Origin: Eledone cirrhosa | Taxonomy: Eukaryota | Assembly: GCA_964016885.1 (NCBI GenBank) | Contig: OZ024752.1 | Location: 14,384,001 to 14,448,000, forward strand | DNA length: 64,000 nucleotides | Direction: 5' to 3' | In this document: positions 11,681 through 38,639 of the stretch, piece after piece | Numbering within the stretch: position 1 is the first letter of the stretch | Layout: each line of letters begins with the position of its first letter | The notes under the pieces: generated by a model | Told to the model about the DNA's origin: nothing | The model's input: only the letters and a program-made list of their open reading frames with translations | Databases searched by the model: none | Made by a program: the position numbers and the translations under genes

Positions 11681-13179
11681 TGATAATATCTAACTCACGC
11701 GAGAATAAATTCTATACGTACTTGATTAGCGAAAAATGGAAACTTCGTAATGGAAAGAGACAATTTTTAAAGCATACCTATATTTAGATTGTGTTATCAG
11801 ATGCTGTCATTTTGCTTTTAATACACAGGGAACATGGTGTTTTTCAGTCAATTGTAACAGAAAATATCGCGTTAGTGTTCAACGTAGTCATATGTGTATA
11901 TTTCCAATATTTTCTCGCAAATTATGTACATATATATGCATAAAAATATATATAACTGATAGATAACAGCTATGCCATTGGGTAATTTAATAAATTAATG
12001 TTACAGTATTATTTTCTTTTATTGGAAGAAATACAATTCCTGTTGTGGACTTGGGGGAATATACTACATTGAAAGAATATATTCATATTCTTCATAATAT
12101 TACATTTAATCCAGAGAGAGTAAAGAGTAACTCGATCTAAGAATATATTAGATTGTCTACATAATTGTACTGATATCGAACTGGGATTTCGAAAAAGGAA
12201 GGTATGAGCTTGTAATACTACACACTTTACACTATCAGAATATCTAACAATTGTATCTGGCTAACAATAGAGAATGGCGATACACACACACATATATATA
12301 TATATATATATATATATATATATATATATATATATATATATATATATATATATATATATATATATATATATATATATATATATATATATATTTATATATA
12401 TATTTATATATATATATATATATATATTTATATATATATTTATATATATATATATATTTATATATATATTTATATATATATATTTATATATATATATGTA
12501 AGTATGTATGTATACGTACATACATATATGTATACAGACGTACAGTAGCATGCATATATATATATATATATATATATATATATATATACATATATACACA
12601 TATGCATACAGGTACACATACATATATGCACGCATCAGTTTAGTCGACGTTTATTATAACGCCGGCCGCTTTGTTCGTTTGTTTGTCAACAAAGCGAACA
12701 GCTAAATGATAGCTAACAAGCTTGAAACTAGTACATCGTTCCTGTGTCAGTGTTGAACAAAAAGGTGACGTGGTTCCTTAACACCATATGGCATAAATTC
12801 AGGCTGTTCGCTTTGTTGACAAACAAACGAACAAAGCGGCCGGCGTTATAATAAACGTCGACTAAACTGATGCGTGCATATATGTATGTGTACCTGTATG
12901 CATATGTGTATATATGTATATATATATATATATATATATATATATATATGTATATATATATATATATATATATATATATATATATATATATATATATATA
13001 TATATATATATATATATATATATGCATGCTACTGTACGTCTGTATACATATATGTATGTACGTATACATACATACTTACATTTAAGTAAGTGCCATACTA
13101 AGAGTGAGAAATGAAATTTCGTTTTCATTTTTTTCAACTTATCGTTTTCGGTATGCCTGACCGATTTAACTCACTCAAT

Positions 13180-13227
13180 ATGCAAATTAGGCTGCTCAGC
13201 CGTTAATTTTCATAAGGAAAGTATATA
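13180..13227 (+). promoter_or_regulatory. octamer (ATGCAAAT) + PSE-like block, putative snRNA-type promoter; repeated at 13694
   Basis: tATGCAAATtaggctgctca...TAATTTTCATAAGGAAAGTATATA, conserved in diverged family I. Confidence 0.45.
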
Positions 13228-13261
13228 CTTCCGAACGTTCAACTATCTGGCAGATGGGTAA

Positions 13262-13304
13262 ACGGTGCTGATGATAGCTAACAAGCTTGAAACTAGTACA
13301 TCGT
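13262..13304 (+). ncRNA. canonical minimal type-I hammerhead ribozyme
   Basis: acggtg-CTGATGA-tAGCT-aaca-AGCTt-GAAA-CTAG-TA-catcgt; all three stems pair. Confidence 0.9.
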
Positions 13305-13775
13305 TCCTGTGTCAGTGTTGAACAAAAAGGTGACGTGGTTGCCTTAACACCGTATGGCATAAATTCAGGCTGTTCGCTTTGTTGACAAACAAACGAACAA
13401 AGCGGCCGGCGTTATAATAAACGTCGACTAAACTGATGCGTGCATATATGTATGTGTACCTGTATGCATATGTGTATATATGTATATATATATATATATA
13501 TATATATATATATATATATATATATATATATATATATGCATGTTACTGTACGTCTGTATACATATATGTATGTACGTATACATACATACTTACATTTAAG
13601 TAAGTGCCATACTAAGAGTGAGAAATGAAATTTCGTTTTCATTTTTTTCAACTTATCGTTTTCGGTATGCCTGACCGATTTAACTCACTCAATATGCAAA
13701 TTAGGCTGCTCAGCCGTTAATTTTCATAAGGAAAGTATATACTTTCGAACGTTCAACTATCTGGCAGATGGGTAA

Positions 13776-13818
13776 ACGGTGCTGATGATAGCTAACAAGC
13801 TTGAAACTAGTACATCGT
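13776..13818 (+). ncRNA. canonical minimal type-I hammerhead ribozyme
   Basis: Identical to 13262-13304. Confidence 0.9.
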
Positions 13819-14380
13819 TCCCGTGTCAGTGTTGAACAAAAAGGTGACGTGGTTGCCTTAACACCGTATGGCATAAATTCAGGCTGTTCGCTTTGTTGAC
13901 AAACAAACGAACAAAGCGGCCGGCGTTATAATAAACGTCGACTAAACTGATGCGTGCATATATGTATGTGTACCTGTATGCATATGTGTATATATATATA
14001 TATATATATATATATATATATGCATGCTACTGTACGTCTGTATACATATATGTATGTACGTATACATACATACTTACATTTAAGTAAGTGCCATACTAAG
14101 AGTGAGAAATGAAATTACGTTTTCATTTTTTTCAACTTATATATATATATATATATATATATATATATATATACAAATATATATATATATATATATATAT
14201 ATATATACAAATATATATATATATATATATATATATATACAAATATAAATTCGCGAGAATCGTTTTCAGCTCAGGAATTAACGAAAGTCAACGTCCGATA
14301 TGTGTGGCAAGCGCTCGAGGAATCATATGAATCAGAGCTGCAATATATATATATATGTGTGTATATATATACATATATAT

Positions 14381-15180
14381 ATTGTTATACTTGGGAGGTT
14401 CATATTTGTGTAATAATATTGCCAGAACTAATCACAGAACACACTCACTGTTTGGTTTGGTTTTCGCTTCTGTGTCTTTTATATCGGTTAATTTAATTTA
14501 TTCGGTCCTCAATGTTGCCATTGACTGACCAACGGTCAAAACTACAGATACAATATAGACAAAAACACATATATATAGTCTATCAAAGTTCTTTCGTTGC
14601 ACATCTGCAACATCGTCAGTGGTGCTATTATGTTTTTTCCCCCGTTGCATTGTATGCTTACGCCATCTTTATTTAGTCTGTTTATTTATTTATTTATTTA
14701 TTTTTTGTCTTCTTTGCGCATGCTCTTGCGTGTGTGTATAGTGTTTTGTTTGATGTGTGTTCTTGTTTGGGTGACTGTGTATTGGTTAATGTATTCTATC
14801 TTAGTTTACTAGTGTGTGTTTACATGTGTTTGTTGTTATTGTGCTTGTGTATTTATTTATTTATTTATTTATTTATACTTCTCTTACTTCAGTGTTGTTT
14901 GCTTGGGTGTTGTTATTTCATTCATTTTTTCTGTTTAGCCTTGGCGTTCTAAGTTCTATTTTGCTGGCCTCTCTGATGTGCCTATCTGCTGGGTCATTTC
15001 TATGTTTAGATATTATTCTAACTTCTATGTTGTCTATGTTACCGTTGTGTTGTTGTCTGGCGTGTTCGTATAGTACTGAACATTGTATGGCAACATTGAG
15101 GACCGAATAAATTAAATTAACCGATATTTAAAGACACAGAAGCGAAAATCAACCAGACAGAGAGTGTGTTCTGTTATTAA
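14381..15180 (-). mobile_element. family G-related PLE terminal element with inverted arm; HHR 14582-14623 (-)
   Basis: 14425-14522 = revcomp of 15087-15180; CTGACGA-tGTTGCA-gatg-TGCAAC-GAAA-GAAC-TT. Confidence 0.75.
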
Positions 15181-15224
15181 TTATATATATATATATATAT
15201 ATATATATATATATATATATATAT

Positions 15225-15541
15225 AAGTATGTATGTATAAGTACATACATATGTGTATACAGACGTACAGTAGTATGTATATATATACATACATGCACAC
15301 ATATATATATGTACGTATGTGTTTACCGAACATTTATTATAATGTTCGGTTTGTTTGAAACATTATAATAAATGTTCGGTAAACCCATACGTACATATAT
15401 ATATGTGTGTGTATGTATATATATATATACATACTACTGTACGTCTGTATACATATATGTATGTACGTATACATATATTCTTACATTTAAGTATCAGCCG
15501 TACTAAGAGTGATAAATGAAATTTCTTTCCATTCTTTTCTA
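15225..15541. mobile_element. palindromic relative of family E
   Basis: Inverted arms centred about 15355; shares actgtacgtctgtatac and ttaag..tactaagagtga..aatgaaattt with E. Confidence 0.8.
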
Positions 15542-36942: not shown

Positions 36943-36983
36943 TATTGGACTAGTTTCGATGTTATTACATCTCATCAGCAATA
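36943..36983 (-). ncRNA. canonical minimal type-I hammerhead ribozyme
   Basis: tattg-CTGATGA-GATGT-aata-ACATC-GAAA-CTAG-TC-caata. Confidence 0.92.
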
Positions 36984-37031
36984 TATACCCATCTTCCGGC
37001 TTCTCTAGAGAATCGTAAAAGCACATATCGT

Positions 37032-37078
37032 TATATGCTTTTTCTATGAAAATTAGTAGTGGGCAGACTAATTTGCAT
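37032..37078 (-). promoter_or_regulatory. octamer + PSE-like block (also at +468, +936, +1404)
   Basis: Minus strand ATGCAAATtagtctgccca..TAATTTTCATAGAAAAAGCATATA. Confidence 0.45.
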
Positions 37079-37410
37079 AGAACGTGAGTTGTACGCACCG
37101 GTTCAGCGGAAACGATAAAAACAAATAACGAAACGAAATTAAATTTCGTTTCGTTTGTAACTCACTTTCGTATGACTGACGCTTAAACAATTAAGTTAAA
37201 AGTGTACATCCACATATGTATACTAAAATACTAGTATGGATATAAATACACACACGTATACATATGTACATGTACCGAGTTTTTCACTGGACACTTTAAT
37301 GTGAGTGTCCAGCTAGTCTGTATGTAACCAAACAGACAAACCGGGTTTTAGAGTCATACGGGTTTTCAAGGAAACACCTTTCCTCTATGCTCCAGAGAGC
37401 CAGACAGGAA

Positions 37411-37451
37411 TATTGGACTAGTTTCGATGTTATTACATCTCATCAGCAATA
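37411..37451 (-). ncRNA. hammerhead ribozyme, unit 2
   Basis: Identical to 36943-36983. Confidence 0.92.
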
Positions 37452-37878
37452 TATACCCATCTTCCGGCTTCTCTAGAGAATCGTAAAAGCACATATCGTT
37501 ATATGATTTTTCTATGAAAATTAGTAGTGGGCAGACTAATTTGCATAGAACGTGAGTTGTACGCACCGGTTCAGCGGAAACGATAAAAACAAATAACGAA
37601 ACGAAATTAAATTTCGTTTCGTTTGTAACTCACTTTTGTATGACTGACGCTTAAACAATTAAGTTAAAAGTGTACATCCACATATGTATACTGAAATACT
37701 AGTATGGATATAAATACACACACGTATACATATGTACATGTACCGAGTTTTTCACTGGACACTTTAATGTGAGTGTCCAGCTAGTCTGTATGTAACCAAA
37801 CAGACAAACCGGGTTTTAGAGTCATACGGGTTTTCAAGGAAACACCTTTCCTCTATGCTCCAGAGAGCCAGACAGGAA

Positions 37879-37919
37879 TATTGGACTAGTTTCGATGTTA
37901 TTACATCTCATCAGCAATA
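37879..37919 (-). ncRNA. hammerhead ribozyme, unit 3
   Basis: Identical to 36943-36983. Confidence 0.92.
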
Positions 37920-38346
37920 TATACCCATCTTTCGGCTTCTCTAGAGAATCGTAAAAGCACATATCGTTATATGCTTTTTCTATGAAAATTAGTCGTGGGC
38001 AGACTAATTTGCATAGAACGTGAGTTGTACGCACCGGTTCAGCGGAAACGATAAAAACAAATAACGAAACGAAATTAAATTTCGTTTCGTTTGTAACTCA
38101 CTTTTGTATGACTGAGGCTTAAACAATTAAGTTAAAAGTGTACATCCACATATGTATACTGAAATACTAGTATGGATATAAATACACACACGTATACATA
38201 TGTACATGTACCGAGTTTTTCACTGGACACTTTAATGTGAGTGTCCAGCTAGTCTGTATGTAACCAAACAGACAAACCGGGTTTTAGAGTCATACGGGTT
38301 TTCAAGGAAACACCTTTCCTCTATGCTCCAGAGAGCCAGACAGGAA

Positions 38347-38387
38347 TATTGGACTAGTTTCGATGTTATTACATCTCATCAGCAATA
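38347..38387 (-). ncRNA. hammerhead ribozyme, unit 4
   Basis: Identical to 36943-36983. Confidence 0.92.
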
Positions 38388-38639
38388 TATACCCATCTTC
38401 CGGCTTCTCTAGAGAATCGTAAAAGCACATATCGTTATATGCTTTTTCTATGAAAATTAGTAGTGGGCAGACTAATTTGCATAGAACGTGTGTGTATTTA
38501 TATCCATACTAGTATTTCAGTATACATATGTGGATGTACACTTTTAACTTAATTGTTTAAGCGTCAGTCATACAAAAGTGAGTTACAAACGAAACGAAAT
38601 TTAATTTCGTTTCGTTATTTGTTTTTATATATATATACA

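Follow-up and report, generated by a model that had tools for sequence, protein, structure and literature searches.

The stretch of DNA analysed here (the window) comprises 64,000 nucleotides of the Eledone cirrhosa genome (assembly GCA_964016885.1, contig OZ024752.1, positions 14,384,001 to 14,448,000) and carries one insertion each of two repeat families, E and I. These are homologous, non-coding tandem repeats with hammerhead motifs, arranged as head-to-head arms within (TA)n, and in both families the two arms, when read in the hammerhead sense, point outwards into the (TA)n. Read in this sense, the end that lies further upstream in the unit is termed site A and the downstream one site B (unit positions ~324 and 387 in E, 258 and 332 in I), while the segment from A to B, found only on the B arm, is termed the tail. 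The two insertions have opposite layouts: in E the short arm ends at A and the long arm at B, whereas in I the long arm ends at A and the short arm at B. No open reading frame (ORF) was found in the units of either family. Coordinates are collected in Table 1, together with those of a coding Penelope-like element (PLE) that lies nearby and serves as a comparison.

All four E and I junctions listed in the original prediction (12498, 14140, 36721 and 38628) are located where it had placed them, and the conserved segment of 60-80 nt that these sites were said to bracket is 63 nt long in E and 74 nt long in I. The two tails are homologous, as their local alignment score of 43 (shuffle mean 21.7) was reached by none of 1000 dinucleotide shuffles, and the hammerheads of E and I are homologous too. 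A relative of E, 75-87% like it and originally delimited as 15225-15541, had been thought to use about the same two points; this is correct for its left end, which lies at A, but the right end stops ~7-8 nt short of B.

Table 1. Positions of the E and I insertions, their motifs and the coding PLE within the window
Feature	Position	Strand	Description
Coding PLE, 5'-truncated; comparison element outside E and I	6790..9739	-	reverse transcriptase (RT) and GIY-YIG domains, frame 8013-9659
E short inverted arm	12498..12702	-	205 nt; 3' end is site A, joined to (TA)n
E long arm	12706..14140	+	~2.8 units of ~514 nt; site B at its 3' end, followed by (TA)n
E type I hammerhead motif, minimal stem III	13257..13307	+	predicted cut after 13298; read from the sequence, then folded
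Predicted E helix partners	13616-13622 with 13684-13690	+	tail motif with block 3' of B; from fold
Block 3' of B, conserved between E and I	13657..13735	+	~70 nt; sequence comparison and fold
E tail (A to B, B arm only)	14078..14140	+	63 nt; also inside the arm at 13080 and 13595
E relative, two head-to-head arms	15225..15540		ends at A (left) and ~7-8 nt before B (right)
I long arm	36721..38490	-	3.8 units of 468 nt; site A at its 3' end, 36721
I type I hammerhead motif	38340..38392	-	predicted cut after 38352; motif and fold
I short arm	38486..38628	+	143 nt; 3' end 38628 is site B; overlaps I long arm by 5 nt
I tail (A to B, B arm only)	38555..38628	+	74 nt

The central finding is that insertions of both families, wherever two arms can be recognised, nearly always have one end at A and the other at B. 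Family I was sampled with an exact 29-nt anchor that has 174 matches in the genome, the first 100 of which yielded 52 loci (53 including the window); for both families the counts refer to merged loci. Two head-to-head arms are present in 37 of the 53 loci, and 34 of these 37 combine an A end with a B end. If each end were free to choose its site, this combination would be expected in half of the cases, and the observed pairing departs from that expectation with p ~4e-9 (binomial, 33/34 after removal of one duplicate; L041 and L043 share their flanks and represent one event). Instead of being scattered over the unit, 89 of 91 arm 3' ends fall within the windows of A or B, a combined 27 of the 468 unit positions, so that the clustering cannot be attributed to chance (one further end, cut by a locus edge, is excluded). 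A histogram of junctions had been predicted to have two sharp peaks, at two fixed sites. There are indeed two clusters, and B is nearly base-precise (unit position 332 in 32 of 34), but A is a zone of ~12 nt, with ends distributed over unit positions 253-264. In the A+B insertions, the A arm is the longer one in 17 and the B arm in 17, and the arm lengths (medians of 385 nt for A and 420 nt for B) are uncorrelated (Spearman -0.25, p 0.15).

Family E is far larger, with 15,821 genome matches to an exact 41-nt anchor, from the first 100 of which 56 loci on one contig were obtained and complemented by the window. Of 33 two-armed insertions among these 57 loci, 32 show A+B pairing (p ~8e-9 against free site choice). 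The longer arm is A in 12 and B in 20 (12 and 17 when L004, L029 and L072, which have an undefined centre, are left out), so that in both families either site can be on the longer arm, in line with the original proposal that either can give the long cDNA. At A, 26 of 40 placeable ends (44 in all) lie at one position. After removal of 4 of 51 "terminal" copies that proved to be diverged continuing copies, 37 of 47 B-type ends align exactly to B, although by eye ~7 of these could stop 4 nt earlier at another AT. Counted by pattern over the whole genome, E joins (TA)n at A in 896 cases and at B in 797, compared with 2 cases at a mid-tail TA and 2 at a TAT located 10 nt beyond B on the 3' side. 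These control sites have the same TA overlap but exist in only some of the counted subfamilies, and the ratio is therefore approximate; the contrast still amounts to two orders of magnitude. The E sample also contains a 7-unit array (L019-L026) that is located between mirror-image flanks of an older element.

Where the flank of a family I insertion is readable, a target duplication of 12-13 nt can be recognised, provided that overlap with the element ends is allowed. This applies to 9 two-armed rows, corresponding to 8 independent loci; the other readable rows comprise 4 without a duplication and 3 with long matches in degenerate TA. The duplication extends into the B end of the element by 3 nt in 5 of the 8 independent loci and by 4-6 nt in the rest, and into the A end by 0-5 nt. 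Duplications that overlap both ends in this way fit staggered nicks with both 3' ends acting as primers. The two arms of an insertion are also more similar to each other than to those of other insertions, as they differ by a median of 0.8%, compared with 2.9% between insertions (30 insertions with at least 60 shared positions), and mismatch in 31 of 356 comparisons at diagnostic sites, the rate between insertions being 41%. Arms belonging to different haplotype groups were found together in none of 33 insertions. This is consistent with both arms being derived from one RNA or from RNAs of one source locus, or with conversion between the arms.

The ends had been claimed not to be the site of hammerhead cleavage, and our analysis supports this. 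Each unit of E (514 nt) and I (468 nt) has the core motif together with predicted stems I and II. In addition to the motifs of Table 1, there is a second E core at 13782 (the E copy at 12706 lacks the start of its core), and further I cores occur at 37914, 37446 and 36978. The hammerheads were identified by motif, an Rfam scan having returned no match at the gathering score. The predicted cut corresponds to unit position 29 in E and 31 in I, and because A and B are located ~230-360 nt away from it, neither end coincides with the hammerhead cut. On the 5' side, 0 of 66 arm ends are 4 nt or less from this cut. Hammerhead-like cores with a long stem II were also noticed at 14619 (-) and 52944 (-); these are likely to belong to other PLE-type insertions.

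An RT-recognition element had been postulated between the two sites, and in this respect the original prediction is not supported. Conservation between E and I 3' of B is at least as strong as in the tail (score 53 versus 43, over ~70 nt), and since it runs past B, the recognition element is probably not confined to the segment between the sites. Fold prediction yields a small hairpin at A and a longer hairpin (9-11 bp in the E tail, 12 bp in that of I) followed by a U-rich run that ends at B. The tail is furthermore predicted to form a helix of 6-7 bp with sequence ~30 nt 3' of B, with pair probabilities of 0.69-0.91 in both families. One position of this helix can pair in 41 of 41 E sequences (A-U in 31, G-C in 6, G-U in 3 and U-A in 1), although these changes probably reflect few events. 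Taken as predictions, these features suggest that the recognised RNA element spans B instead of lying solely between A and B. The block 13691-13735 (+) and its counterpart in I contain ATGCAAAT inside a predicted hairpin, which we take to be the octamer of small nuclear RNA promoters, with a putative promoter role; a literature search on the newt satellite-2 promoter, a possible precedent, found nothing relevant. Just 5' of the conserved hairpin, within 20 nt (I unit positions 358-377), lie 11 of 66 arm 5' ends (p ~0.04 against a rough null), possibly due to a stall of the RT or to an RNA 5' end.

The coding PLE, the frame of which has Pfam matches to RVT_1 and GIY-YIG, is organised in the same way, with a long arm that ends at its B (6790), a 112-nt inverted arm (9628-9739) that ends at its A, and a tail of ~38 nt. 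Across 30 loci from this family, the arm with the ORF stops at B in 18 cases and at A in 8, runs on in 2 and has no visible end in 2; wherever both ends of a fetched insertion can be seen (7 cases), they are A+B. As the coding PLE also obeys the pairing, the rule is a property of PLE integration and not of E and I alone. In the fetched loci, no PLE protein match was seen to continue from an E or I arm. E and I are non-autonomous elements, which insert like endonuclease-containing (EN+) PLEs but are not autonomous members of that group.

The coding PLE family (window 6790-9739 and L137-L166) is young, with at least 150 genomic matches that are 100% identical over 145 aa, many of them in frames of 777 aa, and it has a CxxxxCxxC linker that is presumably Neptune-like. 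Its A ends often show a (TC)n run of variable length before the (TA)n, which is absent from run-on copies and might be due to slippage at the start of reverse transcription or to expansion of a microsatellite at a later time; E relatives (L075, L090 and window 15593-15646) have similar (TC)n ends. One I copy (L116) is nested in (TA)n just past the tail of a member of this coding family. The window additionally contains PLE-like RT/GIY-YIG fragments of other families at 24079-25569 (+) and 53456-53878 (+), with Pfam scores just below the curated cut-offs, and others recognised by eye at 21568-22074, 26936-28020, 30424-31146 and 56078-56452. Further fold-back structures at 10860-11241, 16214-17588, 17636-18545 and 21982-22572 are likely to be other PLE-type insertions.

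Of several possible explanations for the pairing, we favour with good confidence a process in which both cut target strands prime the copying of E or I RNA, one at each site, by the RT/GIY-YIG protein of a PLE. That each target strand primes at its own site, as originally proposed, is what we infer from the end positions; it fits the 12-13-nt duplications and the in vitro cleavage and extension of both target strands by a PLE protein reported in PMC11167929. In such a process, the endonuclease would make staggered nicks in AT-rich DNA. One target 3' end would pair via ~3 bases with the UAU just before B, where copying would begin at an exact base, while the other would start less strictly, within an AU-rich zone at A that coincides with or adjoins the loop of the small predicted hairpin. 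Each cDNA would then extend toward the 5' end of the RNA over an independent and variable distance, and the two cDNA ends would be joined with a few bases of overlap or gap, so generating head-to-head arms with a tail on one side only. The starts would be set by an RNA element predicted to span the tail plus ~40-70 nt 3' of B, and hammerhead cleavage would set neither end. More tentatively, and with about as much doubt as conviction, we envisage that a PLE ribonucleoprotein, probably a dimer, hands one start to each nicked strand by means of a single folded RNA element (the tail hairpin, the U-rich linker that holds B, and the closing helix 3' of B), so that B would be fixed and A looser while the cDNAs run independently. 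Were this correct, the inverted arm and the tail would arise with no need for conventional second-strand synthesis, and a circular retrozyme RNA, being endless, could act as template.

A number of observations weigh against this explanation or limit its reach. Among the 37 two-armed I insertions, one is B+B (L131), one combines a B end with an arm that ends at unit position 42 (L101), and one combines an A end with an arm that ends at 288 (L128), although the latter looks like a B end with an internal deletion; the single E exception (L007) pairs A with a mid-tail end, which the script had filed as A. The short arm of L131 (L131:2234-2512) starts at site A (unit 257) and hence consists of the tail alone. 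In 16 of the 53 I loci a second arm was undetected at the thresholds used, and 21 of the 37 two-armed I flanks are pure (TA)n, in which the exact base and the duplication are unreadable. Taken alone, the helix between the tail and the downstream sequence is not significant, as shuffling gives a 7-bp match in 11-15% of cases in each family. The tail of the coding PLE is unrelated to those of E and I (544 and 850 of 1000 shuffles score equally), so that this element is not shown to be their partner, and none of 30 loci, taken from 17,654 matches, runs from the conserved block into a coding region, a survey that did not extend to the other PLE families of the genome. Finally, no difference in start site between the strands was seen in vitro in PMC11167929, as far as its available text goes, so that the in vitro data do not account for the allocation of one A and one B.

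The alternative closest to published proposals is a fold-back, in which a single primed cDNA primes itself or snaps back and is copied, after which endonuclease resolution leaves the tail. Versions of it have been proposed in both PMC3846280 and PMC8557442, and it would account for head-to-head arms, for identical haplotypes in both arms and for short overlaps where the arms meet. However, copying of a B-primed cDNA cannot yield an arm that reaches further 5' than its template, yet in 17 of 33 I insertions the A arm extends beyond the B arm by >10 nt on the 5' side, which contradicts a simple fold-back and led us to reject it; conversely, an A-primed cDNA has no tail to copy, and an additional template switch is needed in either order. 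We thus regard a fold-back as unlikely. It is very unlikely that both ends start at B and that A arises later by trimming or deletion of the tail, for example when a palindrome is resolved as a cruciform. Long palindromes are unstable, B is exact while A is ragged, and one insertion is B+B, all of which would agree with trimming; but A ends cluster within 12 nt with almost none between A and B, the 12-13-nt duplications are intact at the A junction, A+B is already present in young copies that are 97-100% alike, and starts in vitro map to both borders of the tail (PMC11167929).

It is highly improbable that A and B are merely AT-rich spots used in twin priming of the L1 type, where the second target end anneals wherever the RNA matches TA. 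A few bases of overlap with the target are present at both ends, and the A ends spread over ~12 nt towards TA/AT matches, as would be expected from annealing, which probably tunes the start only inside the A zone. However, equal TA/TAT overlaps mid-tail and 10 nt past B were used twice each, compared with ~800-900 junctions at A and B, and long TA-rich stretches occur elsewhere in the units. Under the L1 model, strict twin priming on one unit would halt the 5' ends of B arms at A, whereas only 2 of 34 B-arm 5' ends of I stop there (248-266). Random twin priming was rejected on the junction counts. It is extremely unlikely that the ends are those of a processed RNA, cut by the hammerhead or another nuclease and primed at its 3' end as in long interspersed nuclear elements. 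A hammerhead motif is present in each unit, but its predicted cut is remote from A and B, the sequence conserved between E and I extends past B, and starts are internal whatever 3' end the RNA has (PMC11167929). Hammerhead-defined ends were rejected.

E and I resemble systems that have in part been described. Insertions of EN+ PLEs lie within (TA)n targets and consist of partial tandems, a 5'-truncated copy in inverted orientation and, "at either end" but often at just one, a tail of 30-40 bp (PMC8557442), and a similar layout with 8-10-bp target site duplications, for which self-priming was proposed, is described in PMC3846280. E and I share with them the inverted 5'-truncated copy beside the 5' end of the main arm, a tail confined to one end (in 34 of 37 I and 32 of 33 E insertions), partial tandems, AT-rich or (TA)n targets, a short target site duplication and a hammerhead in the repeat; they differ in having a longer tail (63-74 nt versus 30-40) and no ORF. 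In the available text of both papers the tail is optional, counts of A+B pairing are not given, and the layout is ascribed to endonuclease resolution or self-priming. PMC8557442 leaves the origin of the inverted arm and the one-sided tail unresolved, while PMC11167929 describes the steps after the start of the first strand as "yet to be validated". That study showed that the protein of PAc, a Poseidon element of the green anole, which as a protein is predicted to be a dimer, nicks and extends both target strands in vitro and starts at two internal RNA sites, the interval of which is the tail, without a need for hammerhead cleavage. E and I resemble PAc in that two start sites bracket the tail, both target strands would be nicked and extended, the hammerhead cut is unused and the target is AT-rich. 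PAc is, however, autonomous and starts in an AC-rich stem-loop inside its ORF, whereas E and I start in AU- or U-rich non-coding sequence, and the inverted arm is left unexplained in the available text of the PAc paper. The A-B segment of E and I is the published PLE "tail", mapped in vitro between two starts of reverse transcription, an identity that the original prediction had missed.

E and I are also reminiscent of the animal retrozymes of the non-LTR (lacking long terminal repeats) type (PMC7229834), being non-coding tandem units of a few hundred bases with low GC content, dispersed copies and one type I hammerhead per unit. Dimer-dependent hammerheads of PLEs have been described (PMC4209133), and retrozymes have been tied to PLE terminal repeats and proposed to be non-autonomous PLE derivatives (bioRxiv 10.64898/2026.07.22.740005). 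Insertion ends are not described in the available text of PMC7229834, in which "inverted", "tail" and "target site" do not occur, nor in that of the preprint. A paper stating the one-A-one-B rule was not found in a search that was thin on subscription journals and did not include figures or preprint supplements. The tail, the two start sites and the link between retrozymes and PLEs are thus already in print, and the increment is modest: it consists of the pairing counts, the longer tail, the evidence against fold-back and the conservation past B. A rule of one A and one B, with either arm the longer, constrains the mechanism of PLE integration and argues against a simple fold-back, and E and I supply a candidate cis element of ~150 nt that is conserved between two families. 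With respect to the known systems, the anatomy of the insertions indicates that hammerhead retrozymes use the PLE route.

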